DNA of 59,686 nt, filler included. It is 6 parts of 6 records of this genome, joined end to end, with 100 filler letters (N's around TTAATTAATTAA, not from the genome) between each part and the next. Parts side by side here need not be neighbours in the genome. Positions count along the whole stretch, not along the records: positions 47,469 to 59,686 come from DRR723986_8288; 5 more parts are not named here. One strand, written 5' to 3'. The translations under genes were made by a program, and so were the position numbers. Under the pieces are notes generated by a model. The model was not told the origin of the DNA. It did not search any database and saw nothing but the letters and a program-made list of their open reading frames with translations. This document shows, piece after piece, positions 11,402 to 59,686 of this stretch; position 1 is the first letter of the stretch, and every line of letters begins with the position of its first letter.

Positions 11402-11501
11402 NNNNNNNNNNNNNNNNNNNNNNNNNNNNNNNNNNNNNNNNNNNNTTAATTAATTAANNNNNNNNNNNNNNNNNNNNNNNNNNNNNNNNNNNNNNNNNNN
11501 N
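11402..11501. other. Artificial contig linker (same linker at 20900-20999, 30115-30214, 36433-36532, 47369-47468)
   Basis: N-run + TTAATTAATTAA (stops in all six frames) + N-run; genes are cut at both sides. Confidence 0.98.
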
Positions 11502-47468: not shown

Positions 47469-47582
47469 CTCCACCGATTCGCCGGTCCTGCCCGCGAGTC
47501 GTTCATAGAGCCTGCGATCCTTGACACAGCTCGGGCAGGCGCCATCGTAGAACACGCGAAGCTGATCGCCTGTTGCCGTCAT
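47469..47582 (-). CDS. DCC (DUF393) thiol-disulfide oxidoreductase family, 5' part
   Basis: LRVFYDGACPSC (DxxCxxC); cut by contig start. Confidence 0.8.
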
Positions 47583-47821
47583 CGCTATCCCCCCTGTTTG
47601 CATCGCATTCATCTGACTACACGATAAAGCACTGCGTGGCTCCCGTTAACCCTTCGGGTCTCAGGCATAACCCGCGAGAGGCTGTGCCATCGCCCGGAAA
47701 TTACAGGCAAGTTTCGATCACTGTCTGGCTCGCATGTTTTTCGTTCGTGAGTCCAAGATAACTCATTGCTCATTGATGACGCCGCTATTCAGCCAGCAAA
47801 AATCAGCACCACACCAAGCCC

Positions 47822-48274
47822 TTAGAGCACCAGGAATTCGGTCCAGAGACGGCTCAATGATGGCAAGGTCGGCGCCAGAAGCAGAAGTGCCAGAAGCGCG
47901 ATCAGCAGTCCGTTCTGCATCATGTTTGGAGCCGAGGCCGCCGCGTGTTCCAGGTTTGCACGACGGTAGACCATATCGGCAATAGCCAGGAAAAAGGTTT
48001 GTTCCGCGATGCCCCCGAGAGCATTACTCACAGCCAACTCCGGGTGCCCGCGGTAGGCCGCTGTTACCGAGAGCACCGAACCACTGAGGGACGTCGCTGC
48101 CCCCAGAAGCACGGCTCCAGCGGTTGCCTCACCCAGCCCGGTTCGGTCGGCGAGCTGGTCGACCACCCGTGTGATGCGTGTGCCCGCAATTGCAATGACC
48201 AGCGCACAGACGCTGAAAACCACGATGCTCTGTGACAGCGTCCAGCTATCCAGATCCATGATCGGCAATGTCAT
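47822..48274 (-). pseudogene. Truncated sodium:calcium exchanger family gene
   Basis: DQLADRTGLGEA..GAVLLGAATSL, LAVSNALG (first alpha-repeat only); stops at ~150 aa, second repeat missing. Confidence 0.7.
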
Positions 48275-48438
48275 CCTCCTGTTGCCTTTGAAGCCTGCCG
48301 CGCGGCCAACGCGAAACGCGCGACAGCGGACCGTACGCGTGGCCGGGCAGATAAGCGCTGCTTTAGTGAAACAAGCCCGCTTCACGCCCATGGTGGCGAC
48401 ATCCAGTGCAAACGTACAACCCTTGGCTGGGGTTTCTC

Positions 48439-48690
48439 ATGCCCATTTGCACTGTCACGGTCGGGGATCTGGCTTTCTCGCCGCAGCAGAAATCACAAAT
48501 CGCCGAGGCAACCACAGTGGCCCACAGCACCCAAATCGTGGACATCACAGCAGAGTATGTGCGAATCGATCTGCAGCACATTCCGGCCCCCCCGATGATC
48601 GAGTGTGGGCGGTTTTTGCCAGCACCGGGCGATGAAGCTGAGCGGGAAAAGGTGATAACTCTGGAAAAGCGGGCCAGCGTGCCTAAATAA
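48439..48690 (+). pseudogene. cis-CaaD/Cg10062-like tautomerase, copy 1, with internal deletion
   Basis: MP..TV..QQKSQIAEA.T.AHS joined directly to QIVDITAE..IECGRFLPAPGDE; the middle present in copy 2 is missing. Confidence 0.75.
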
Positions 48691-48694
48691 CCGC

Positions 48695-48716
48695 AATAAT
48701 GGATCTGTCCCGGTTT
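48695..48716 (+). repeat. Boundary motif copy A
   Basis: AATAATGGATCTGTCCCGGTTT. Confidence 0.75.
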
Positions 48717-48779
48717 CCCCGGTCCTATCTGCTGAACTTCTGCTAACATCATGCACTGCAAACTACTTTTTAGCCCTGC

Positions 48780-49589
48780 ATGGTTTTAACAATGCTTGAT
48801 CACATCAACCGGTTCTTATTTCTGGCACTCTGTTTAGTCACAATATCTGGCTGCGCAACGCAAACGATCAACACCAGCTTCAATGCCCTTCCGTCAGACG
48901 ATTCAATGGCATATTTCTCAGAAGGATGGATCATCCAGAAGCAGGAGTCTGATGACTATGTAGTTCAGATGGCTGTCCGAGATAGAAAACAGGCGTGGGA
49001 GGCAATCACTGGTCTTCTGTTCGTTCAAAACAAGTCTGAAAAACCCGTAAACGTCAGTGTGGAAAACATCTCCTTTCAGCAGGACGAGTACTCGATTGAC
49101 CTTCTTTCTTACAACGAACTGACTCAACAACACATCAGTCGCGCTCAATCCCGGAGAACTGCACTTGCCCTCAGCGCTATGGCCCAGAGCTTCAGTGCTG
49201 CCCAGCCTCAGACCACCACAACCTATGGTTCGGGAACTTCATACGGAAGCGGAGGGACTACAAGCTACTATGGCACCACTCAGTCATACACCCATGACCC
49301 TGCTGCCTCAGCGGCAGCTAAGGCTCAGATTCAAGCCAACGTCCAGGCCGGAGTTTCAAACATCCAGACAGACCTGCAGCGAAACCTTAATTCGATGGAT
49401 GGATATCTCCAGAAGACAACTGTTTTTCCAGGGCAGAGTTACAGTGGAAGGTTTCAATCCCAGATGACCCGCTTCGACCAAAGGCGCGAGTCGATATATG
49501 CTCTGACAGTAGAACTCGACGGCGAAAGGTTCAGCTTCAAGTTTATCGAGGAGGCAGACATCCAGACGCACCAGCGCAAACTGTTCTGA
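48780..49589 (+). CDS. Hypothetical lipoprotein
   Basis: Lipobox-like FLALCLVTISGC; G/S/T/Y-rich linker TTTTYGSGTSYGSGG. Start may be a downstream ATG. Confidence 0.75.
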   Translation: MVLTMLDHINRFLFLALCLVTISGCATQTINTSFNALPSDDSMAYFSEGWIIQKQESDDYVVQMAVRDRKQAWEAITGLLFVQNKSEKPVNVSVENISFQQDEYSIDLLSYNELTQQHISRAQSRRTALALSAMAQSFSAAQPQTTTTYGSGTSYGSGGTTSYYGTTQSYTHDPAASAAAKAQIQANVQAGVSNIQTDLQRNLNSMDGYLQKTTVFPGQSYSGRFQSQMTRFDQRRESIYALTVELDGERFSFKFIEEADIQTHQRKLF

Positions 49590-49629
49590 GAAGGTCAGAA
49601 CTACCAGAGACAAGGACAGCTCAAACAAG

Positions 49630-50376
49630 ATGAACAGCAACTACAAAATCGCTCTACTCATCGACTGTGACAACGTCAGTCACCAATCCATCGAAGGGGT
49701 ACTCTAGGAGCTCGCCAAATACGGGGCTGTGAACGTGCGCCATGCCCACGGAAACTGGAACGGTCCGCAACTGGGTGGCTGGATCGAAAAGCTCCACGCC
49801 AACGCCATCCGGCCGGTTCAGCAGTTTGCCTATACAACCGGCAAGAACGCTACCGATGCATCAATGATCATTGATGCCATGGACCTGCTCTACAGCGGGA
49901 ACGTCAATGCGTTCGCCCTCATGACCAGCGATTCCGATTTTACCCCTCTGGTGATGCGAATTCTCGAAGCCGGCCTACCGGTCTTTGGATTCGGCGAACG
50001 CAAAACTCCCATGCCATTCGTGAACGCCTGCTCGCAATTCATCTACACGGAGAACCTGCGGGAAGAAGCTGAGGAGCCCGATAACGTCAACAACGGCGGC
50101 ACGCCAAAACCGACGGTCGAGACCAAGTGGGAACGGAACAAACTGAGGGGCGACGCCGTGCTGGTGCGGACTCTACGAACTGCGGTGGAACAGACTGCTG
50201 ACGATGATGGTTGGGCGCATCTAGGAAAAGTTGGCCAGTATATTTCTAATAACAGCTCTTTCTCCCCCGTGAACTACGGGTACAAGAAGCTGAGCGATCT
50301 TATTCGAGCCAGTGAACTCTTCGAGATGAGTGTGCGGGATAAGAACGTCCTGCATATCAAAAGCCCAGAAAAATAG
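49630..50376 (+). pseudogene. NYN (LabA/DUF88) + LOTUS/OST-HTH protein with in-frame TAG at codon 26
   Basis: MNSNYKIALLIDCDNVSHQSIEGVL*ELAKYG (TAG at 49705-49707), then GKNATD..DAMDLL, SDSDFTPL, FSPVNYGYKKLSDLI. Confidence 0.82.
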
Positions 50377-50390
50377 CTTTGTCCCGGTTT
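50371..50390 (+). repeat. Boundary motif copy B (overlaps the NYN stop codon)
   Basis: AAATAGCTTTGTCCCGGTTT. Confidence 0.75.
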
Positions 50391-50574
50391 ACCCTCTGAT
50401 TCAGGCCCAGCTGATAAGACCCACCTTTACGGTAACAATCTGTTTCATTTTTTGAAGTGTGCAAATTGTAGTTAGCTTGGTAACTTACGCTCTGTAATGC
50501 CAAACTTTACTGAAGAAGGCCACCTCACAGTTGGCCCGCACGGGAAGCAAACTCATAAATTTAAAGGATGAAGT

Positions 50575-51036
50575 ATGGAATATGATGACTTGGAATACGT
50601 CGGCTTTTGGGCTCGAACTGGCGCAACGCTGATCGATTCTATCTTGATAGGTATAATTGTGTTTCCCTTGCTCACCGCGTTCTATGGTGAGTCCTATTGG
50701 GATAGTACAAGTTTAATTGTTGGGCCTATGGATTTTCTTTTGTCCTGGGTATTTCCTGCTGTAGCTGTGATTCTATTTTGGATATCAAAACAGGCAACAC
50801 CAGGGAAAATGGCCGTTTCCGCCAAAATTGTTGATGCCAAAACTGGCAATGCTGCAACCACTGGCCAATTGATCGGACGCTACCTCGCATACTACCTCTC
50901 CTTAATACCGCTTGGTCTTGGCTATTTCTGGGTGGCCTTTGATTCCCGCAAGCAGGGCTGGCATGACAAGCTCGCGGGGACAGTGGTCGTGCGGAAGAAG
51001 CACCGGGCACCGAGACCAGTTTCGTTCGACACCTGA
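50575..51036 (+). CDS. RDD family membrane protein
   Basis: YVGFWARTGATLID, QATPGKM, RKQGWHDKLAGTVVV. Confidence 0.9.
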   Translation: MEYDDLEYVGFWARTGATLIDSILIGIIVFPLLTAFYGESYWDSTSLIVGPMDFLLSWVFPAVAVILFWISKQATPGKMAVSAKIVDAKTGNAATTGQLIGRYLAYYLSLIPLGLGYFWVAFDSRKQGWHDKLAGTVVVRKKHRAPRPVSFDT

Positions 51037-51122
51037 CATACGCATATTGGAAGGTTTGCAGAGAATGACGCCTGAATACGCAGAGAAAGGCATAACACTT
51101 CCTTCACATGCTTAAGGGACCG

Positions 51123-51170
51123 AAACCGGGAAAGGTTTATTTCGCGAAGTAATAGACCCGTCCCGGTTTT
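51123..51170. repeat. Inverted doublet of the boundary motif (copies C- and D+)
   Basis: AAACCGGGAAAGGTTTATTT-CGCGAAG-TAATAGACCCGTCCCGGTTTT between two convergent genes. Confidence 0.78.
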
Positions 51171-51173
51171 GCC

Positions 51174-51668
51174 TCAAGGTTTGCAAGAGATGTGGCCTTG
51201 TACGTTCGCCGCATTTATTGTTGGCTCAGGAAAGGCATACGTAAGATCCATAGATTGCCCACTGCCGAAGTTCAATTTTTGTACACGCTCAAAATTACCT
51301 TCGGAGGTGGAGATTTTTGCAGTAACTGTGATTTCACCTTGCTCCCCATGATTTTTCACAGTCGCATTGTATCTATAACCGAAGTCGCCTTCTCCGTTTA
51401 TCAACAGCACATCCTGAGTGAGCTGATTATTCGACAGCTCGCAAACTGCCTTACTCCCTCCAGAATCTAACAAATTTTCGACTTCAGAAAGAATGAAGGC
51501 AGCTTTCCCACTAAAAATAAGATATACAAACCAAAACGCAATTACCGATTTCCAGAAAACTCCCGTCCAATAATCAGTCGAGTGAGGTTTTTTCACACCA
51601 CAATGGGGACATTTTTCAGCTTTATTAGAAACCTCTTCACCACACTCTCTGCATTTAACAATCGCCAT
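51174..51668 (-). CDS. Zinc-ribbon membrane-anchored hypothetical protein (probable integron cassette ORF)
   Basis: MAIVKCRECGEEVSNKAEKCPHCG, one TM helix, extracytoplasmic domain; starts ~30 nt after the R' box of an attC-like site. Confidence 0.8.
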   Translation of the reverse strand: MAIVKCRECGEEVSNKAEKCPHCGVKKPHSTDYWTGVFWKSVIAFWFVYLIFSGKAAFILSEVENLLDSGGSKAVCELSNNQLTQDVLLINGEGDFGYRYNATVKNHGEQGEITVTAKISTSEGNFERVQKLNFGSGQSMDLTYAFPEPTINAANVQGHISCKP

Positions 51669-51699
51669 CGATAAAAATCTCCTTCCTATGATTTATTGG

Positions 51700-51789
51700 A
51701 AATAACGCTCCGCACAGGGGCAGACAAATAAGCGCAGCGTTCTGGCTGTCCCAGCGACCAACGGGAGCCATTGCTGCGGTTTTTTATGC
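51700..51789 (-). mobile_element. Integron attC-like recombination site (R'' box degenerate)
   Basis: Minus strand GCATAAA..CAGCA..GCTCCCGTTGGTCGCTGGGACAGCC...GTCTGCCCCTGTGCGGAGC-GTTATTT: imperfect 90-bp palindrome ending in GTT; TAAC mutated to TAAA. Confidence 0.7.
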
Positions 51790-52018
51790 ACCATCATTGG
51801 GCAATGAATACCAAATCTTCCTACCAAGCCAACCGTCACAAAAGAGATTTGGTGTATGACATGATAAAACGGATTTATTTATCGGCGCTGTATCGCGTTA
51901 TATTTGTATGATTATATTTCATGGCTCAGCAATTCGTGCGTCCAGCACTTGAATAGCTTTGGCATAGCGCAATTCTGTGCGTTCGATCTTGATCATCTCT
52001 CGTCAGTCCGGGTCGACG

Positions 52019-53371
52019 TCACTCTTTAATGATAAGGCTCTCTGCTCTCTTAAGTTTACCTAGTGCAGCATCAAAGACTTGCTCTCCACTTTTGGTATGC
52101 TGCTGGTAGACAGCAATGAGTTGATCGACTTTATTGATGGTGGCATAGGTCAATTGGCTGTTCTGTTGTTTGGCTTGTTTTGCGGCTTCCTCCGCTTTTT
52201 GGAACTCATTTCGAGCTGTATCGAAGTCATTCAGCGCATCACGTCTTAGCTGTTTAATCTTTTCAAAATGTCTTTTAAGCGACTTGAACCCTTTCAACTC
52301 AAACAGTGATTCGTTGATTTTTATGAGACTAGCGGCAATCTCGGCCTTCATTCCTGCAGATTGAATACCATTCGACAATAGCCAGTCGTTATCCAACTTG
52401 ACCATTTGCGTCACTGCACCTTGGACTGAGGCATTTTGCTTCGCGACCAACCAACGCTCGTAAGTCTTATCACGTAGGAGTTTGACGCCGCCATTGTCGA
52501 ATACTTGGAAGTTCAGCTTATCAGGATTGATCCGCTCATCGGCGATACGCCCGATCTTCGGTCTGAACTTGAACACCAGAAGCTGTTTGGCACCCTCTAG
52601 AACTTGAGGATAATTGGGGAATTGAGGGCAGATTTGACGGATTTCGGGAATGATTTTTTCTTGCAAATAAGCGGCGGGGTGTGAGTTGAGAACCTCCTTT
52701 TTGACCGCCTCGTTATCATATTCCGCAATGACGCTGACGTAGGAATGCTGGCACCATTTGGGTCCGGGCTGACTAAACCATGAAATAAACTTTAGGCCTT
52801 CGCTCTGATGCAACACATAGTCATTGATCTCGCTGCGAATAAGCTGTTCTTCAACTTCGGCGGCGCTCCGCGGGTCGAGGGCTGCCAATTGCCTGGAATT
52901 AAGGTGGTATTGCGCATCAAGGGGGCGGTGACCGGTTACTTCAGCCCCTGCTTTACTGACTTTTACCGTGATGCTATCCCAAGGTGGGGGCTTGTTGCTT
53001 TTGAGGGCGGAGACAAGTCCACTCGGGGCCATATTGCTCGGCTTGCGGTACATGGCCAGAGTGATGTAATCGATCTCGGCTTCGGCACCACAAACACGCT
53101 GAATTGAGGGGAGAATGGCATCATACACCCACTGTTGCAGAGGCTTGCCAAGCGCTGCCATTCGTTGTTCGTGAGGAGCGGAATAAAAAACACTGACCGG
53201 GATGGCGCGACCGGGAAGGTTGTGATCTTCACACCAACGCTGGTTTGATGACCATGGAAACGAGAGGACCCAAAGCCCGTCTTGCTGATAAATCACCTTG
53301 TCGTCGTTTTGAGCGATTGCTGGCAGAGCAATCAGGAAACCCAGACCGACAGTTATCGCTCTTAAAATCAT
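52019..53371 (-). CDS. Secreted hypothetical protein with two tandem Cys-containing repeats and a coiled-coil tail
   Basis: Signal peptide ..ALPAIA; repeats VIYQQDGL..RWC..ILPSIQRVC and VLHQSEGL..KWC..IIPEIRQIC. Confidence 0.7.
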   Translation of the reverse strand: MILRAITVGLGFLIALPAIAQNDDKVIYQQDGLWVLSFPWSSNQRWCEDHNLPGRAIPVSVFYSAPHEQRMAALGKPLQQWVYDAILPSIQRVCGAEAEIDYITLAMYRKPSNMAPSGLVSALKSNKPPPWDSITVKVSKAGAEVTGHRPLDAQYHLNSRQLAALDPRSAAEVEEQLIRSEINDYVLHQSEGLKFISWFSQPGPKWCQHSYVSVIAEYDNEAVKKEVLNSHPAAYLQEKIIPEIRQICPQFPNYPQVLEGAKQLLVFKFRPKIGRIADERINPDKLNFQVFDNGGVKLLRDKTYERWLVAKQNASVQGAVTQMVKLDNDWLLSNGIQSAGMKAEIAASLIKINESLFELKGFKSLKRHFEKIKQLRRDALNDFDTARNEFQKAEEAAKQAKQQNSQLTYATINKVDQLIAVYQQHTKSGEQVFDAALGKLKRAESLIIKE

Positions 53372-53479
53372 ATTAACCCTCGGTAGCCTAAAATAATCAT
53401 GACATTGACTAGGCAGCGCGCTTCGTTATTGTGATCATTTGACAGCATCGTTACTGTTATAACAAAGCACCAACCATTC

Positions 53480-53620
53480 TTCGCCAAGACCGCCTTCCCA
53501 TGCTTAACGTGATTTCTGAACTTAGCCATCAGCCGCCCGGATTCAATGGCTTCGATCATCTGCTGAACTTCCACAGCAACCAACCGCTGCTCGGTTTGGG
53601 CCTTGATAAAGTGAAGAGCG
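53480..53620 (-). pseudogene. Possible fragment of a NERD-domain protein (C-terminal region)
   Basis: HFIKAQTEQRLVAVEVQQMIEAIESGRL..FRNHVKH resembles, from memory, the segment following NERD domains. Confidence 0.4.
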
Positions 53621-53777
53621 GTATCAGGTACCAGATATAATCGGAGAGGGGCGGTAACGCCGGGGCGTAGTCCATCTGTCATCCTTAACAGCGCCGTTTA
53701 TCAGTTTCTTAAAACTACACACTAGTCTAATACATGGGAAACTTCCCACTCGGGAGACGAATAATTTAGTAAACCAC

Positions 53778-53813
53778 ATAAAACAAAAGCCGCCCGGTTT
53801 CCCGAGCGGCTTT
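53778..53813 (-). terminator. Intrinsic terminator
   Basis: Minus strand AAAGCCGCTCGG-GAAA-CCGGGCGGCTTTTGTTTT. Confidence 0.75.
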
Positions 53814-53846
53814 CTCGCCTGCTCTCTGGTCGTCTCGACGTGCGTA

Positions 53847-53930
53847 TCAGGCAGCTGCCAGGTACGCCCCTGCAAGCGCCAGCACACAGCCAACCCCACG
53901 ACTGAACCGGCTATCCGCCTTCAGCAAGCA
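53847..53930 (-). pseudogene. 3' remnant of a membrane-protein gene (LysE-like C-terminal helix)
   Basis: ..RFSRGVGCVLALAGAYLAAA* followed by a terminator; nothing upstream except motif copy E. Confidence 0.5.
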
Positions 53931-53939
53931 TCAAAACCG

Positions 53940-54025
53940 AAACCGAAACAGACCTATCTATTAGATGCATCCACAACGCATGTTGCTAACGGTCGGTTTT
54001 CAAAATAAATCTGTCCTGGTTTTTT
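53940..54025. repeat. Second inverted doublet of the boundary motif (copies E- and F+)
   Basis: 53940-53962 reverse complement AATAGATAGGTCTGTTTCGGTTT; 54002-54025 AAAATAAATCTGTCCTGGTTTTTT. Confidence 0.7.
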
Positions 54026-54030
54026 CTCCA

Positions 54031-54522
54031 TTAACCTCGAAACCCAGTTCGCTGAGTTGGTCCAGCATGGACCGGCAGTTCGATAATTTCACCAACCACA
54101 CCGCCTTCACTCACCTGCAACCGCCCTACCGTGATCGGCAGCGTAAAACGCCGGGGCCCGGCACCGCCCGGATTGAAATAAAGAACATCGCCAATCCATT
54201 CATTGCGGGGTTTGTGGGAATGGCCGGCAATCACCACGCGGTAACGGCCTTGCGGATCGAACTCGAGGGTTTTGACATCGTGGAGCATGTAGAAGGCGTG
54301 GCCGAGAAATTCCAGATCCTGAACATCAGGGAGCGTCGCTGCACGGCCTGCTGTATCGATATTGCCGCGGATAGCAACCAGGGAAGCGATGGCCTCCAGT
54401 GCTTCCAGAACCTCATCCCGCCCCACATCACCGGCATGCAAGATCAGATCCGAGCCCTCCAGAGCCTCCAGGGCTTCGGGACGCATTTTGCTGTGGGTGT
54501 CTGCGATTACCCCGATTTGCAT
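54031..54522 (-). CDS. YfcE/MJ0936-family metallophosphoesterase
   Basis: IADTH, HAGD, RGNID, GHSH, NPG motifs. Confidence 0.9.
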   Translation of the reverse strand: MQIGVIADTHSKMRPEALEALEGSDLILHAGDVGRDEVLEALEAIASLVAIRGNIDTAGRAATLPDVQDLEFLGHAFYMLHDVKTLEFDPQGRYRVVIAGHSHKPRNEWIGDVLYFNPGGAGPRRFTLPITVGRLQVSEGGVVGEIIELPVHAGPTQRTGFRG

Positions 54523-54669
54523 GTTTACGCCTCGTTCAGTCTCTCAGTCGACCTACCTGGCCCGTTCGTGTGGCCAGGCAGATAAGCGTTGCTATAGTGA
54601 AACAACCCCGCCTCACGCCCATAGTGGCGAGATCCAGTGCAGACGTACAACCCATGGCAGGAGTTTCCC

Positions 54670-55096
54670 ATGCCCACATACACCGTCCCGGTCGCGAACC
54701 TGTCTCTGACGCCGCAGCAGAAATCACAGATCGCGGAGGCCATCACAGCGGCCCACAGCGCTCAAACCGCCGCTCCCCGGTTCTTTCTTTGCCCAGGTTG
54801 TGTTTTCTGCGGCCAACGAGGGCGATCACTTTATGGGTGGCAGAGCGAATATCGCACCTCAGGTGTATGTGCACGGCCTGGTGCTGGAGGGCAGAAGCAC
54901 TGAGATCAAACAGGCCCTGATGAGCCAGATGCTTGAACAAATCGCCCAAATAGTGGACGTCACAGCTGAAGATGTCTGGATTTATCTGCAGGACATTCAG
55001 GCCACCCAGATGGTCGAGTTTGGGCGGCTTTTGTCAGCATCGGGCGATGAAGCTTGGTGGGCAAAGGGATTGCCTTCGGCAAATCAAACAACCTAA
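54670..55096 (+). pseudogene. cis-CaaD/Cg10062-like tautomerase, copy 2, frameshifted
   Basis: MPTYTV..AEAITAAH..APRFF / AQVVF..HFMGG..VYVHGL..EGRS..VWIYL..QMVEFGR; apparent 4-nt duplication TTCTTTCTTT at 54781-54790. Confidence 0.8.
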
Positions 55097-55117
55097 ATAA
55101 TAGATCTGTACTAGTTC
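55095..55117 (+). repeat. Boundary motif copy G (degenerate)
   Basis: AAATAATAGATCTGTACTAGTTC directly after tautomerase copy 2, the same position as copy A. Confidence 0.6.
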
Positions 55118-55207
55118 TCAAAGCGGCGGCTGAAAGCAATCCGCCTTATGCTCCTTACTCATGGCAAGGTTGCCATGAAATTCGATATTGTCAAGTCTGT
55201 CACAAGC

Positions 55208-56065
55208 TTATCCTATATTGCGATTTATAACCGCCGCTAACTGATCTAAACGATCATGGTCTTTCATTAATCCAGTATAGAATATAGAAAGCCAATTATT
55301 TGGCGTATCATGGTCCTTATCCATATAATTTCTGTATTTCTCAAGAACAACTTTCAAATCAGCACCTTTGAAATCTTGCACGGACAACGGGAGAAGCAAA
55401 CCCAGCTTATCATGAGGACGCTGACTTAAATCACTCCAATATTTTTCAAACCAACCTTGAGTTGCTTCGTTTTGAATTACTTCTTCAAGATGAAACTTTA
55501 AAATATCAATATTAGGATGCTTTTTATCTATAACTTCTATAGAAATGCTAGGTGCATAAAACTCTCCTTTAAACACAGATTGATACAATCGGTCTGTCAG
55601 AAAATCATCATAATATGGATGAATTACTCTTGCAGGAGATGCTGCGCCTTTAACAACAGTCCCCCTTAACGAATTACAATTACAAGCTGGAACAAGATTT
55701 TTTGAAAAAAATGAGTACTCTGGGTAGTCATCTTTGGGAAGATAGTGATCTAAAGTACCATTACCGAACCCCCCACACATTGGGCAAAGGGTCGGTGATA
55801 AACTTCGACGATACTCTTTTATAAATTGCAAGCGACCTTTCGGAGGAGAGCGATAGTGAGTTCTTAACGCCTTCTTAAGATCGCCACTAATCGGCAATGG
55901 AACTATATTCCAAGGGTTTCCTCCGCTTTTATTATATAAATTGTATTGACTATGAAACTGGACATATTCATCTATCAAGCTTGGATAGCTCCCCAGACCT
56001 TCATTATTAGCTATAAGCTGTAGCTCTTTAATATCGTCAACAGCAGGAGGATCAATTCTCTTCAT
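55208..56065 (-). CDS. HNH endonuclease (PtuB-like)
   Basis: CPMCG..TLDHYLPK..YPE..NLVPAC.CN, IHPYYD; overlaps the ATPase stop by 14 nt. Confidence 0.85.
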   Translation of the reverse strand: MKRIDPPAVDDIKELQLIANNEGLGSYPSLIDEYVQFHSQYNLYNKSGGNPWNIVPLPISGDLKKALRTHYRSPPKGRLQFIKEYRRSLSPTLCPMCGGFGNGTLDHYLPKDDYPEYSFFSKNLVPACNCNSLRGTVVKGAASPARVIHPYYDDFLTDRLYQSVFKGEFYAPSISIEVIDKKHPNIDILKFHLEEVIQNEATQGWFEKYWSDLSQRPHDKLGLLLPLSVQDFKGADLKVVLEKYRNYMDKDHDTPNNWLSIFYTGLMKDHDRLDQLAAVINRNIG

Positions 56066-57737
56066 TATCTTCCTCCACGTTCAGCTTCCTTCGCAAGTAC
56101 ATCAAGACATCCGCGGACAGCTCTGCTTCTAGCTCTCTTAACAATGAATCTCTAGCTTCAGGATTTTGTGGAAATCGATCTAGTATATCTTCAACTAACC
56201 CATTAGTAATTTCATCCTCAAAAACAAAATAAGAGATGGCTCCAACATCTGCACCAAATGTTTTAAGCCTAGGGTTTTGGATACTTACGCGACCATCGCC
56301 GTCGCCTTTAAATACCAGAACTTGGGTTCTGGGGACCTCTCGAACGAAATACGCAGAGTGTGTGGCAATAACAGCAACAGAGCCAGTGGATTTTAGTAAT
56401 CGATCAAGGATTCGGACAAACTCTGATATAAAGTTTGGGTGAAGGTGTGTTTCCGGTTCATCTAGTAGAACGAGGGTTCCATTTTCAACGAACAAACATG
56501 CTTGAACAACAAACTGAATAAATGACAATTGTCCACTGCTGAGAGGAAAAATTTCACCTTCTATGTAAATCGATGGGTTAGCATTGCTTACGACAGCACC
56601 TTGTACTTCTAATTTAGCCTGCTCTCCTCCACGGTTTAGCTTCAAAAGCGGCACGTAAAGTTTACCGTTGACTCTTAAAACATGATCAGCCGCAACTGAA
56701 ATATCCTTTCTCAAAGGTATGACGACATTCCTAACATTAGAAAAAAATTGTATACTATCTTCAAACAATTTCCAGCGGTCGTTATTGCCAATAAGTTCCT
56801 CAGACCGAGCAAGCTGAACGCAGAGATCACAGAACCCCCTTGAGGCCTTTACACTCGCACTCCTATTGAGCATTAATCGTCGATACTTAATTCTTTTGTT
56901 CTTGCGCTCAGGCGGGAAAGTATTGACTGTTTCCCCCGGCGTAGCAATGGCAAGCAAGCGGCTCACCATGGGCCTACCGTAGTTAGGATCAGAAAAACGC
57001 TGATCTCCTTTAACCAAAGACTTCGCTATTGTGTGGAGAGCTTGGCTTTTACCTAGACCATTTCGTCCAATTAGCACACTGATTCTTTTCGGTAGGATAC
57101 TCTTAGTATCAAACCTCAAATTTAGATTGTGATTTTCTGGGAACCCTGCAAGATCATATGAAAGCTTAAGCTCAGTAGAAATTCTAGAAAAGCTTTCTCC
57201 CTCCAAACCATCAAGAAGTGTATCTGCATTATGGAACGCGAAAAAACGATCAGAGTCTCTCATGAAAGCTAAACTAAATACTTCCGTTTTTACTGCAGCA
57301 TCGACGAGTTTAGCTCGTTTTGGAAAGCGCCGACAGGCAACCAAATCGTTTAAAGCTAGGAGAAGACTGTTTGCCTCTTCAGTTCCATGTTCATTTACAA
57401 AGTATCTATAATTCTTCATTCCTCCCTGTAGTGTAAAAAAATCAGGTAATTCGCTCGCCTCGAGCAACTCGACTTGATTTGATACCTGACCACTATCATC
57501 GACATTTTCATTACCTGACGTGAACCCGAGAAATACGCGGCCTTCTATTTCCCTTCGTCCGCCTCCAAAATAAATAAGATATCGGTAGCTACACCTATAT
57601 CTAAAATCATTCCAGCTATCATTCACTGGCGAAAAAATTATCGCTGGACACTTAACATCTGGAAACCTTATAGCATTCCCGCAAAAGTAGATATTAAAAT
57701 CAGCCCCAACACTTCTGTCTATTCGACCGTCTTCCAT
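56052..57737 (-). CDS. ABC-type (AAA_21-like) ATPase (PtuA-like)
   Basis: Walker A GRNGLGKS, signature LSSGQ, Walker B LVLLDEPETHLHP, H-loop IATHS; ~210-aa N-terminal domain with DSWNDF. Confidence 0.88.
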   Translation of the reverse strand: MEDGRIDRSVGADFNIYFCGNAIRFPDVKCPAIIFSPVNDSWNDFRYRCSYRYLIYFGGGRREIEGRVFLGFTSGNENVDDSGQVSNQVELLEASELPDFFTLQGGMKNYRYFVNEHGTEEANSLLLALNDLVACRRFPKRAKLVDAAVKTEVFSLAFMRDSDRFFAFHNADTLLDGLEGESFSRISTELKLSYDLAGFPENHNLNLRFDTKSILPKRISVLIGRNGLGKSQALHTIAKSLVKGDQRFSDPNYGRPMVSRLLAIATPGETVNTFPPERKNKRIKYRRLMLNRSASVKASRGFCDLCVQLARSEELIGNNDRWKLFEDSIQFFSNVRNVVIPLRKDISVAADHVLRVNGKLYVPLLKLNRGGEQAKLEVQGAVVSNANPSIYIEGEIFPLSSGQLSFIQFVVQACLFVENGTLVLLDEPETHLHPNFISEFVRILDRLLKSTGSVAVIATHSAYFVREVPRTQVLVFKGDGDGRVSIQNPRLKTFGADVGAISYFVFEDEITNGLVEDILDRFPQNPEARDSLLRELEAELSADVLMYLRRKLNVEEDNEEN

Positions 57738-57896
57738 TCAAACAATTCCAATATTACCTTAATATTTTTAATAATAATTACCAACGCCCATATATCAATG
57801 AGGCCGAATAATTTGCTTTCTTCATAGATACGCTTGCCAGTCCTTTATAAATCAATCAAAATCTAAACTCAAAGATATCATTGACAGCGCCGAGGG

Positions 57897-57955
57897 TATT
57901 AACGACCGTGTAATAGGCGCGAGTTTTCAAGCGCTCCAATTAACCCATTTTATAT
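57897..57955 (-). mobile_element. Degenerate short attC-like site
   Basis: Minus strand ATATAAA..TAATTGGAGCGC..GCGCCTATTA..GTTAATA, starting 5 nt after the HEPN gene stop. Confidence 0.4.
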
Positions 57956-57960
57956 AAATT

Positions 57961-58551
57961 TTAAGACATCGTTCGAAACCAATCTTTAACGGTCAGATGG
58001 AGACGGTCCACTTCATCTTCCGTGATAGGGCAACAATGAGCTATAGGACCACGCAGCAAATTCAGACTTCCCATTACCCTCTCGACAGCTCTGCGGCTGT
58101 TAAATATTGTTCCAAATATATCCCAGTTCCCAGTGATAATTACGGACAGCTCGCCGAAAGTTGTATAGTCAATTTCGTTGTCTGATCGCCGGCTAATCCC
58201 ACTATCTACTTCTTTCTGAGCGCGATTTTTGACATCGTCTCTAATTCTTTGTGCAATTCTCTCAGAGCTCCACCAGTTTGAGCCTTCCGCGTCAAATAGA
58301 ACATCGACAAGTAATTTTCTGATAGATGTTTCTAGACAGTAAAACAGCTCATAGTGCTGCGACATATTTGCTGCTTCAGCACGAACTGCCTGCTCAAATT
58401 GAGGGTAAAAACGAGCTTCGTCGACAGTTGACTCTCGGGCGTGGTGTCCGAGTTCGATATTATATTCGTTCTCGATATTCCGTATCTCATCTGAAATCAG
58501 ACAACCAGTCATTCCGAACGCCCTGATATGATTGACGGCCTTCTTATTCAT
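57961..58551 (-). CDS. Swt1-like HEPN domain protein (putative RNase)
   Basis: FYCLETSIR, NWW, DYTTFGEL..II..NWDIF, RGPIAH (RxxxxH); ATG 58551 overlaps the upstream stop (ATGAATAA). Confidence 0.82.
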   Translation of the reverse strand: MNKKAVNHIRAFGMTGCLISDEIRNIENEYNIELGHHARESTVDEARFYPQFEQAVRAEAANMSQHYELFYCLETSIRKLLVDVLFDAEGSNWWSSERIAQRIRDDVKNRAQKEVDSGISRRSDNEIDYTTFGELSVIITGNWDIFGTIFNSRRAVERVMGSLNLLRGPIAHCCPITEDEVDRLHLTVKDWFRTMS

Positions 58552-59194
58552 TACTATCACTCAGCAGATTCTCTTTGAGACTCTTGAAAATTGCATTGAA
58601 AACAGCAATATCTGAGGTCGCAGGAAGGTTTAGATTTATCGTATAACCAAGGTTCAAACCAATGCCTTGGTTATTGGAGGGAGGCAGCTGAACTTGGTAG
58701 CTTGCCGCTGGCTGACCATTCTGCGATTCTAAGTCGTTCATCTGTACAGCTTCTTCACTCGTCTCTGAAGCTGAGAAGTCAGCAAAGGATTTTATGTTTT
58801 TTATGCAGCTCGCTGTATAAGTGACAGTTGAGGAGTCATGTTCTTGACCCGTCACCTCAATAATCAATCCTTTGAGTTTTGCTTCGCTCAACTCATGAAC
58901 ATACTCGTTTCGTCGATAGAGCTCTGCGTAACCGTGCTTAAGCATTGCTGCAGCCGCTTCACCGCGTGTGGCTGGGTTTCTGAATTTTCGGTAGATTGCC
59001 GTTGGTGTCCCGTCGGCGCCAGCCATACCTACTTTCTTCAGATATGCCGCCATTTGATTCCCGGAACCACTAGGAATCTTCAAGATCTCCTTGACGAAGT
59101 CCTGGCTAATTCGATCAGGTGTTGCGGCCTTAGCAATTCCATTTAGTGCTTTTGTCACGTTTCCTGGGGCAGTCACATAAGGCAGGTTAGCCAC
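58544..59194 (-). CDS. DUF5343-like protein
   Basis: LPY..PG....L..I..AATP..ISQDF, GTPT..Y..FR, GYAELY.RNEY.H, C-terminal YTINLNLPATSDIAVFNAIFKSLKENL. Confidence 0.75.
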   Translation of the reverse strand: MANLPYVTAPGNVTKALNGIAKAATPDRISQDFVKEILKIPSGSGNQMAAYLKKVGMAGADGTPTAIYRKFRNPATRGEAAAAMLKHGYAELYRRNEYVHELSEAKLKGLIIEVTGQEHDSSTVTYTASCIKNIKSFADFSASETSEEAVQMNDLESQNGQPAASYQVQLPPSNNQGIGLNLGYTINLNLPATSDIAVFNAIFKSLKENLLSDSNE

Positions 59195-59233
59195 TATTCA
59201 TTTCTCCTTTTCATTGTCCTACATGATAGGAAG

Positions 59234-59305
59234 TCATAACGCCAATATTAAGCAGCCGCCTTGCCGGAGCACCGCGACGGTCCGGTGGAGGGCCGGAATG
59301 GACTT
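59234..59305 (-). mobile_element. Partial attC-like site (R' side intact, R'' side lost)
   Basis: Plus strand TCATAACGCCAATATTAAGCAGCCGCC..CGGTCCGGTGGAGGGCCGGAATGGACT; minus-strand GTTATGA lies ~40 nt before the DUF5343-like start. Confidence 0.55.
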
Positions 59306-59647
59306 CCACCCAATAAAGTGACCTCACTCCATAGATCGAGCAAATCGGCGTAATGGGCTGCCAATGACATAGTTTTACCTTCGCTCGATACATTGGCCAC
59401 CTCAAGATCACCAAACACCTCTACTATAGCCTCGACTTCCCTTTCCTGAAGTACTACGCGAAACAAATCAGTCTCTTCTCCACCTTCGTGCTTCTCAGGC
59501 TTTTCAATCGGGCCTTGCTCAATGATCGCCTTCAGCTTATTCGCGATCCTTGGATACGCGGGACGAACCACATCAATGGTTTCTTCTATCACTGATCTGC
59601 CAAACACATTCGCCGCCTTTGCTAACTCTATATTCAGGCTGGTTCAT
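59248..59647 (-). pseudogene. Small acidic hypothetical cassette gene, probably damaged at both ends
   Basis: Body VFGRSVIEETI..PIEKPEKH.GG.ETD.F..HYADLLDLW; ATG 59647 is out of frame with the body; the C-terminus reads into the attC remnant. Confidence 0.55.
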
Positions 59648-59654
59648 CGTGGGC

Positions 59655-59686
59655 ACTTAACGCCCGGCTCACGCGCCGGCTTGGAG
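59655..59686 (-). mobile_element. attC-like site, R' end (cut by window end)
   Basis: Plus strand ACTTAACGCCCGGCTCACGCGCCGGCTTGGAG; minus-strand GTTAAGT 7 nt before ATG 59647. Confidence 0.6.

Follow-up and report, generated by a model that had tools for sequence, protein, structure and literature searches.

A probable TIRtron terminal repeat at the joints of accessory gene arrays in Marinobacter

TIRtrons are elements of about 850 bp, in which a RAYT-like Y1/HUH gene (TIRYT; TnpA_Y1 subclass 2.1, or RAYT group 1) lies between inverted copies of a terminal inverted repeat (TIR). The class was named by Di Nocera, De Gregorio & Rocco in 2013, with the TIR signature GGGGWSAS (PMC3733652). Quentin et al. 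2018 equated TIRYT with TnpA_Y1 subclass 2.1, and reported no REP-like hairpins flanking the genes (PMC6006769). Our own provisional assignments to subclass 2.1 use this published equivalence. RAYT-like class 2 Y1 genes are found in about a quarter of bacterial species, yet according to the 2018 survey nothing shows them to be mobile (PMC6006769). RAYT group 1 is described as widely distributed, with a flanking 16-mer at ~12 copies per replicon (Bertels et al. 2017, PMC5581495). The RAYT/TIRYT literature that we searched assigns no function to the TIR-flanked subclass. Here, we describe a stretch of DNA of 59,686 nucleotides (nt), referred to as the window, that carries repeated copies of a motif of 19-21 bases, AAATARATCTGTCCCGGTTTT. 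The original prediction took these copies for the edges of an undescribed cassette or recombination system. We find that the motif is very probably the TIR of a TIRYT.

The nearest precedent for the arrays described below is a preprint on subclass 2.1 and prochlorosin clusters. In picocyanobacteria, full-length TnpA_REP subclass 2.1 genes and many fragments are interspersed with these clusters (Laurenceau et al., bioRxiv 10.1101/2020.03.09.984088). A role in diversifying recombination was proposed there; a later note by the authors states that causality is unsupported. Both cases place the same enzyme subclass among accessory gene clusters. However, the picocyanobacterial clusters have one cargo family and no inverted repeats were found, whereas Marinobacter has a 21-bp TIR at the joints and heterogeneous cargo.

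Identity of the motif

Six matches to AATARRTCTGTCCCGGTTT with at most 3 mismatches occur in the window. The number expected by chance is 0.05, and six were reached in 0 of 100 shuffles. These copies lie at 48698-48716(+), 50372-50390(+), 51123-51141(-), 51151-51169(+), 53940-53958(-) and 54004-54022(+). A seventh copy, 55097-55117(+), is decayed, with more than 3 mismatches. It is recognised because it aligns with copy 1 at the end of a duplicated tautomerase module, and because its orthologues in L006, L102 and G143 are better copies. Hence, the seven copies originally claimed all stand. We add an eighth, also decayed, at 53781-53801(+), which is orthologous to L063 3851-3871. Compared with the 21-mer consensus, the window copies have 2-5 mismatches each. 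Two pairs are arranged head-to-head, one at 51123/51151 (spacer 9 nt) and the other at 53940/54004 (spacer 45 nt). The first alone folds better than shuffled sequence (hairpin z -2.4; inverted repeat I19). Its orientation is that of the TIR pairs around TIRYT genes, and this doublet (51123-51141/51151-51169) is a gene-less mini-TIRtron.

The identity of the motif was established in relatives. An exact-pattern scan, with one genome per species, returned at least 120 loci, chosen for holding the motif. At locus L121 of Pelobacter, genes with a Y1_Tnp domain (Pfam E 1e-10 to 8e-12) lie between inverted copies of the motif. Homologs or fragments of the L121 Y1_Tnp protein were found by tblastn in 26 of the 120 motif-selected loci listed. 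Full-length homologs, with 44-54% identity, occur in SAR324, Hyphomicrobiales, gammaproteobacterial metagenome-assembled genomes (MAGs), Tamilnaduibacter and Marinobacter. Eight full-length close homologs were inspected for flanking repeats. A direct TIR overlaps or follows the stop codon in all seven cases that could be judged, and an inverted TIR lies 60-140 nt upstream in seven of the eight. Often, the TAA or TAG of the TIR is itself the stop codon of the TIRYT gene. At ten Marinobacter loci with a full-length gene, the direct TIR follows the end of the alignment in nine (by 9 nt in eight, otherwise by 34 nt). The inverted TIR is 66-132 nt upstream in eight (116-118 nt in six), and both ends are present in eight. 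This inverted-flank arrangement was seen twice in L121 and also in L033, L031, L111 and L083; it occurs in relatives only, not in the window. Further examples of Marinobacter TIRYT genes lie at G105:C2:1356042-1356722 and G118:C6:93543-94223, and arrays with an intact gene and many near-perfect TIRs are those of L162, L165 and L166.

When reverse-complemented, the TIR core reads GGGGACAG in L031 and L033, and CGGGACAG in Marinobacter and the window. The latter agrees with the published signature GGGGWSAS at 7 of 8 positions. Among pairs within 150 nt, 26 are head-to-head and 2 tail-to-tail, with doublet spacers of 7-118 nt. Inverted flanking and a GGGGWSAS-like signature match the TIRtron, and the element is therefore not undescribed. 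The original prediction had named a match to the terminal repeat of a known element as its own refutation; on this count it falls, since TIRYT/TIRtron is such an element in the published accounts (PMC3733652, PMC6006769). Conversely, its suggestion of an HUH/Y1 RAYT-like transposase as the enzyme is borne out by TIRYT genes between inverted TIRs in relatives. The element class is already known, and the Marinobacter-type TIR may already stand in the supplementary lists of published TIRYT papers.

The resemblance extends to protein and repeat family. As in the published descriptions of TIRtrons and TIRYTs (PMC3733652, PMC6006769, PMC5581495), we see a RAYT-like Y1/HUH gene whose product, of ~230 aa, is extended at the C-terminus, and non-hairpin inverted repeats with the GGGGWSAS signature. 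In both, the repeat families comprise tens of copies, single, dimeric or clustered, with a patchy distribution across phyla. There are three differences. First, the published repeat lists and groupings, in the parts available, do not report array confinement or module joints. Second, the TIRs of the window are all orphan and decayed, with no TIRYT gene beside them. Third, the Marinobacter core CGGGACAG is one base off. Six TIRYT homologs of 222-233 aa have an invariant HUH motif (NHVHL) and an invariant Y..NP motif (RY.E.NP). In the L121 protein, the Pfam Y1_Tnp match spans only residues ~12-136, and a C-terminal extension lies beyond the ~120-aa core. NCBIfam model REP_Tyr_transpos (NF047646) gives 72.6-83.0 bits, with one of five proteins above the cut-off of 80. 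The IS200 model NF033573 gives 20-23 bits against a cut-off of 55. A PDB sequence search with TIRYT returned 0 matches at E<=0.01. No conserved partner gene was found beside intact TIRYTs; the widest neighbour cluster, an ATPase, occurs at 4 of 10 loci and the rest is varied cargo. A TnpB partner was not seen beside intact TIRYTs at the 10 Marinobacter loci.

Locus L121 (G004:C10:238000-257900, a Pelobacter MAG) contains three TIRYT-family genes, one of them interrupted, with six TIRs and an IS3-type (rve) transposase. In Marinobacter, scores of the TIRYT model fall into three classes. Those of at least 380 bits are cognate to the TIR. The class at ~190-245 bits is often a single full-length copy, for example G001:C1:1275818-1276465. 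The class at ~55-60 bits comprises open reading frames (ORFs) of 326-397 aa.

Two other groups of Y1 systems can be compared. Elements of the IS200/IS605 group (IS608, ISDra2) have subterminal hairpins and no TIRs. They move by 'peel and paste', summarised in PMC6006769: single-strand cleavage next to a recognised end, a circle, and insertion next to a specific short sequence. TIRYT belongs to the same enzyme superfamily, and the chemistry that we propose for it below would be borrowed from this group by analogy. However, the ends described here are 21-bp inverted repeats without a hairpin of their own, the NF033573 scores are far below cut-off and no TnpB partner was seen. REP/REPIN-RAYT systems were reportedly described by Bertels & Rainey in 2011 and by Nunvar in 2010. 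There too, a Y1 gene lies between inverted copies of its own repeat, with gene-less inverted doublets (26 vs 2 here) and orphan singlets. The classical repeat is an imperfect palindrome with a GTAG (or CGTC) head. In contrast, our motif is not a palindrome, lacks a GTAG head, and is found as tens of copies in arrays rather than hundreds dispersed. Furthermore, it is common to several phyla and not species-specific, and its gene is multi-copy or lost rather than single-copy and vertical.

Arrays and module joints

Most of the matches listed from the pattern scan are in Marinobacter. Other lineages among them are Desulfuromonadales/Pelobacter, Desulfobulbales, SAR324, Hyphomicrobiales, Thiodiazotropha and other gammaproteobacterial MAGs. 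A few single matches in Firmicutes and Bacteroidota may be chance, as we estimate some tens of chance matches for the pattern in this collection. Across 177 instances, the conserved unit is ~23 nt (rAAAATArATCTGTCCCGGTTTTc), with no conservation beyond it.

The copies are clustered, not dispersed. In G001, a complete 4.4-Mb Marinobacter chromosome, 18 of 27 motif matches lie within 35 kb. For G005 the figure is 29 of 40 within 57 kb, and all 7 matches of G143 (4.0 Mb) are in 11 kb (C2:408903-419759). A reversed-pattern control gave 0-1 matches per whole genome. We then surveyed 151 sampled genomes of G001's genus. The motif is present in 117, with 0-36 copies each at no more than 2 mismatches, and the control is 0 in all; at 3 mismatches, copies per genome reach 40. 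Genomes throughout the genus keep their TIR copies within a single array or a few. Neighbouring copies, excluding doublets, have the same orientation (++/--) in 103 cases and opposite orientations (+-/-+) in 57. Neither array confinement of TIRs nor a role at module joints was found in the literature searched on RAYT, TIRYT and TnpA_REP, a search that did not cover supplementary files.

All-versus-all comparison of the 120 motif-selected loci listed, together with the window contig, indicates that homology changes at the TIRs. Of 1550 distinct endpoints of inter-genome high-scoring segment pairs, 166 are within 10 nt of a TIR 3' end, compared with 1.07% for random positions. Homology blocks that arrive from the 5' side end sharply at -2 to +3 of the TIR 3' end, a sharpness that is partly due to every copy sharing the motif. 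At 307 TIRs, blocks end at 57 and start just after 72; only 20 are spanned. Often, the partner genomes of the upstream and downstream blocks differ.

Individual cases have the same form. In five indels, both edges carry a TIR while the empty site has just one (L023/L038, L102/window, L110/L039, L116/L039 and L038/L091). In the case of L102, a 476-nt module is absent at window copy 1. The block at 48703-50390 is 90% identical in L102, where it is TIR-bounded on both sides, and blocks from 6 other loci stop at 50390-50396. Compared with L006, the window holds 5.7 kb more between the conserved flank (48327) and copy 6. Genome G143 is 98.4% identical to the window over 47470-55079 (7610 nt) and unrelated from copy 7 onward. 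Together, the block ends, the indels of a module plus motif and the divergence of G143 at copy 7 uphold the idea that the motif is a recombination or insertion junction. Genus-wide, TIRs stand at the points where modules, each of one to three accessory genes, were gained, lost or swapped. That they mark real exchange joints is, in our view, likely, and we hold this with considerable confidence.

A further footprint lies beside the copies. Tandem re-iteration of the TIR 3' core plus the next 2-6 nt occurs within 30 nt after 45 of 305 copies, in units of 11-19 nt. The background is 2.4% in random windows, and upstream of the copies the count is 16 of 305. Such re-iterations were noted in L007, L035, L056, L062, L072, L081, L111 and other loci, and in the window at 48716-48730 and 53930-53958.

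A contig from run X15 joins 48715 to 51160, with 7 other letters between, and so skips modules 2 and 3 of the window. A contig of 3992 nt from this run is circularly permuted relative to the window (48000-55400), with its novel joint at a TIR. At either end it meets a 38-nt node whose depth is double (54164-54198). The permuted contig may represent a circle, one that has re-integrated, a rearrangement in tandem, or an artefact of the graph.

Arrays can also be compared with the presence of the enzyme. The 11 genomes with an intact cognate gene have a median of 17 TIR copies; for the remaining 140 the median is 3 (Mann-Whitney p 1.3e-6, with no correction for phylogeny). Loci around intact genes have up to 13 TIRs per 8.8 kb (9-13 in five), most with 0-2 mismatches. 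Hence, TIR copy number and perfection track the intact gene. The association with Y1/RAYT genes anticipated from the window is thus present, as TIRYT genes stand beside the motif across phyla and copy number is higher with an intact gene. The window contig contains no TIRYT remnant (best E 0.07). In G143, the same TIRYT-family model that matched 99 of 151 genus genomes gave no match at E<=1. All 7 copies of G143 lie in 11 kb and it has no TIRYT gene; therefore, the window array is an enzyme-less relic. This agrees with the earlier view that the enzyme is not encoded in the window.

Catalysis by TIRYT or by the host

We propose that TIRYT, when present, would cut one strand at or just beyond the CCCGGTTTT end of the TIR, and that the cut strand would be rejoined to another TIR copy. 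Two direct TIRs could then release or take up a unit of one module plus one TIR. By analogy, the chemistry might be that of IS200/IS605 elements, which excise and insert single-stranded circles. Arrays would grow and reshuffle locally, with new copies landing beside old ones. After loss of the gene, the TIRs would decay, as they have in the window. Taken as a whole, this explanation (a TIRtron TIR, exchange joints and catalysis) is somewhat favoured. For the catalytic step by itself, we judge the chances to be even that TIRYT, rather than host recombination, makes the exchanges.

A broader and more tentative reading is that TIRYT and the 21-bp TIR form an integron-like platform for gene capture, with HUH single-strand chemistry. 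The enzyme would recombine any two copies of the TIR, and units of a module plus one TIR would be excised as circles and re-inserted beside resident TIRs; the permuted contig from run X15 may be such a circle or a re-integrated form. There are clear likenesses to integron cassettes: arrays of small, unrelated and often promoter-less accessory genes, units of a module plus one site, one or few arrays per genome, and sites mostly in the same orientation. The differences are the lack of attC boxes or fold, a candidate enzyme of the HUH/Y1 kind rather than a tyrosine recombinase, genes on both strands and no fixed attI-like platform identified. If the platform reading is true, arrays of up to 57 kb have been built in this way, and defence and accessory genes moved between strains and phyla. 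TnpA_REP subclass 2.1, a large group without an assigned function, would also gain a biological role. The Marinobacter data point to a second way of building integron-like gene arrays, by a different chemistry. The cargo genes of the window are not shared across phyla beyond a 24-residue Zn-ribbon match. In Marinobacter, a whole genus has been surveyed, intact arrays can be set beside relic ones, and breakpoints between near strains are seen. The question of what TIRYTs do becomes testable in culturable bacteria.

The strongest alternative, which we consider rather unlikely, is that the TIRs are passive scars. According to this explanation, they are left-overs of TIRtron or mini-TIRtron insertion in a permissive low-GC island, where the host turns modules over. 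The host could do so by homologous recombination in flanking genes after DNA uptake, by slippage between 21-bp direct repeats or by microhomology joining. TIRs would then be at joints only as short identical sequences between genes.

Several observations favour passive scars, or otherwise weigh against catalysis by TIRYT. Arrays persist and vary in genomes without an intact enzyme: ten such genomes carry at least 15 copies. Among individual cases, G001 has 21 copies with only a 45-codon TIRYT fragment, and G005 has 40 copies with only fragments. Such large arrays without an intact gene mean that shuffling need not require the enzyme at present. Among 101 collinear indel pairs, 20 have a TIR at or in the gap and 81 do not, and at least one joint is a plain microhomology deletion. 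The crossover base also varies. In L102/window it lies close to the TIR 3' end, and in L023/L038 it falls within the 5' part; thus, the expectation that breakpoints fall at a fixed base of the motif is not borne out. Many of the motif-selected loci are orthologous, so that the counts above are not of independent events. The known substrates of characterised Y1 transposases are hairpins, and single copies of the motif form none compared with shuffles (z 0.3 to 0.8). Enzyme activity, a circle or an excision product were not observed, runs X21 and X22 having given 1 and 0 reads of the organism.

Strand preference is a last point of this kind. A replication-strand bias is expected for Y1 enzymes. 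Over all loci, we do see a bias (165 vs 88; counted by locus, 67 vs 34, p 0.0013). However, it is absent outside Marinobacter (29 vs 32; 19 vs 19 among 48 loci) and so is not robust. Because of this absence, the bias over all loci is probably a matter of shared ancestry. In G001, the main array is on the replichore with negative skew and most of its copies are on the C-rich strand, a pattern that the two small clusters of this genome do not share.

Other observations fit passive scars poorly. Slippage does not explain unrelated modules inserted exactly at a TIR. The extreme confinement to arrays implies that new copies land beside old ones. The number and perfection of TIRs rise with the intact gene. 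Tandem re-iterations at the 3' end, on 15% of copies, are a footprint not expected from recombination in flanking genes. If the role of the TIRs is only passive, they would still be a useful marker of variable islands in the genus.

A second alternative is that the motif serves a tyrosine recombinase, as in Xer/dif modules, or a different recombinase whose gene lies elsewhere. A pdif site is 28 bp, with two 11-bp arms around a 6-bp spacer. In Acinetobacter plasmids, pdif modules are bounded by such short sites in both orientations, and this likeness is what speaks for the idea. However, the 21-mer has no 11-6-11 dyad and the doublet spacers vary from 7 to 118 nt. No match to the IntI model for tyrosine recombinases was found within or beside the main arrays of G001 and G005, which counts against the tyrosine recombinase named as a candidate in the original prediction. 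Among the loci listed, TIRYT is the only protein family to recur beside the motif across phyla. We regard a Xer/dif-like site as very improbable.

Equally improbable is that the motif is a signal at gene ends for regulation or termination, such as an operator, a terminator or an RNA element. Such a signal would account for copies that are intergenic and often a few nt from stop codons. It would also fit the motif's TAR, which ends a frame open for at least 100 codons in 29 of 250 copies, compared with 12 and 11 in the other frames. However, single copies have neither hairpin nor the T-run shape of a terminator, and their orientation is independent of gene orientation. Furthermore, the 21-mer is near-identical across phyla only together with the TIRYT gene, and synteny breaks at the motif. 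TAR was separately considered as a general stop codon, and rejected, as the excess over other frames is only ~2-fold.

Finally, an unusual attC used by an integron integrase can be dismissed, in line with the original remark that a single copy lacks attC architecture. Despite the cassette-like architecture and an IntI gene (453 bits, cut-off 265) ~4 kb from a motif cluster in Pelobacter G004, there is no RYYYAAC...GTTRRRY pair 40-150 nt apart in 48300-55200, and none of the 8 copies has such a box within 10 nt; folding is not seen for single copies; genes are on both strands; and IntI is remote or below cut-off elsewhere, being at 103 kb in G001 (TIGR02249) with the array at 1.77 Mb, 1.6 Mb apart, on another contig in G002, and not above cut-off in G003 or G005 (G143 was not searched for IntI).

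The window and its variable island

The window consists of six contigs joined by N runs, with GC contents of 62, 72, 69, 56, 60 and 48%. From these values, the contigs are from unrelated organisms. The joints (11402-11501 and the other four) are N runs around a TTAATTAATTAA linker with stop codons in all frames, and the concatenation is artificial. The motif array is confined to the last contig (47469-59686). Hence, the earlier remark that the other five contigs have no copies is true in our scan and uninformative, since they are from unrelated organisms. The last contig starts with a conserved flank of 59% GC, and its GC content then falls to 40-53%. A megablast search of the plasmid collection with the whole contig gave no match. 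The array lies in a variable island, now decayed, of a Marinobacter genome from which the enzyme gene has been lost.

The flank, at 47469..48327(-), is a gene fragment of the Na/Ca-exchanger family (Pfam Na_Ca_ex E 1.2e-11) and forms the left edge of the variable region in the contig. It is 93-95% identical in L006 and L104, and homology to both ends at 48327-48333. Module 1 (48328..48716, +) is tautomerase copy A with motif copy 1 at its end, as defined by alignment of the tautomerase copies and by repeat families D1 and D2. Module 2 (48717..50390, +) contains a 269-aa ORF of no known family and an NYN/LOTUS gene (ORF 49729-50376; Pfam NYN 7e-28, OST-HTH 6e-15), followed by motif copy 2. The stop codon of the NYN gene is the TAG of that copy. 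Upstream of this gene, a left-end TIR was not found; only a stretch resembling a ribosome-binding site is there. Module 3 (50391..51169, +) is an RDD-family gene (Pfam RDD 2.7e-24) followed by the head-to-head doublet 51123-51141(-)/51151-51169(+).

Module block 4 (51170..54022, -) comprises a Zn-ribbon ORF, a 450-aa ORF, a 104-aa ORF, a HupE/UreJ-type fragment, the decayed motif copy at 53781-53801(+) and the doublet 53940-53958(-)/54004-54022(+). It is 100% identical to G143:C2:415802-418632 (2831 nt). The fragment had been labelled 'LysE-like'. This label is not supported, as the 91-aa ORF has no Pfam hit and its counterpart in the DNA of another Marinobacter genome belongs to the 3' end of a HupE/UreJ gene. 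The other gene labels of the original prediction match ours. The next module (54023..55117, genes on both strands) is a metallophosphoesterase gene (54031-54522, -) and tautomerase copy B (+, frameshifted), followed by the decayed motif copy 7 (55097-55117). Pfam matches here are Metallophos_2 (4e-31) and Tautomerase_2/_3. The phosphoesterase gene adjoins a motif in 16 loci.

The earlier description of copies at gene edges is roughly right, both for the overlap with the NYN stop and for the two tautomerase modules that end at the same place. Our coordinates put the end of the Zn-ribbon ORF at 51174 (5 nt from copy 4) and that of the phosphoesterase ORF at 54031 (9 nt from copy 6). The statement that a single copy is not palindromic agrees with our finding that single copies fold no better than shuffles.

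Genes in the island are decayed. Tautomerase A has an internal 183-nt deletion relative to copy B (48523-48538), tautomerase B a frameshift (54637-55096) and the NYN gene an in-frame TAG (49706). In G143, NYN (248 aa) and tautomerase (154 aa) are intact; therefore, some of the window defects may be assembly errors.

A second repeat of 24 nt, GGCCGGGCAGATAAGCGCTGCTTT (family D4), occurs at 48341-48364(+), 51718-51741 and 54572-54595. These positions are upstream of both tautomerase copies and beyond the start of the Zn-ribbon gene. The repeat resembles an inverted TIR core with a 1-nt gap, and from this likeness it may be a decayed inverted TIR (a left end) or an operator.

One variant lies away from the motif. 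In L063, a MAG contig that is 95-97% identical, positions 430-1220 are a 790-nt insertion relative to window 51969/51972, a place without a TIR. Run X13 has a loose end at 51863, near the L063 insertion, that is perhaps the same variant.

Beyond motif copy 7 lies a strain-specific block (55118..59686, -) without a motif copy. It has no match in 40 kb of G143 around the locus (396000-435800). The block holds two candidate anti-phage gene pairs. The first, PDC-M01 (55208-57737), consists of an ATPase (56052-57737) and a partner (55208-56065). The second, PDC-M34 (57961-59194), consists of a DUF5343 gene (58544-59194) and a HEPN_Swt1 gene (57961-58560). PADLOC hits for the block are at 6e-39, 2e-61, 1e-35 and 5e-40.

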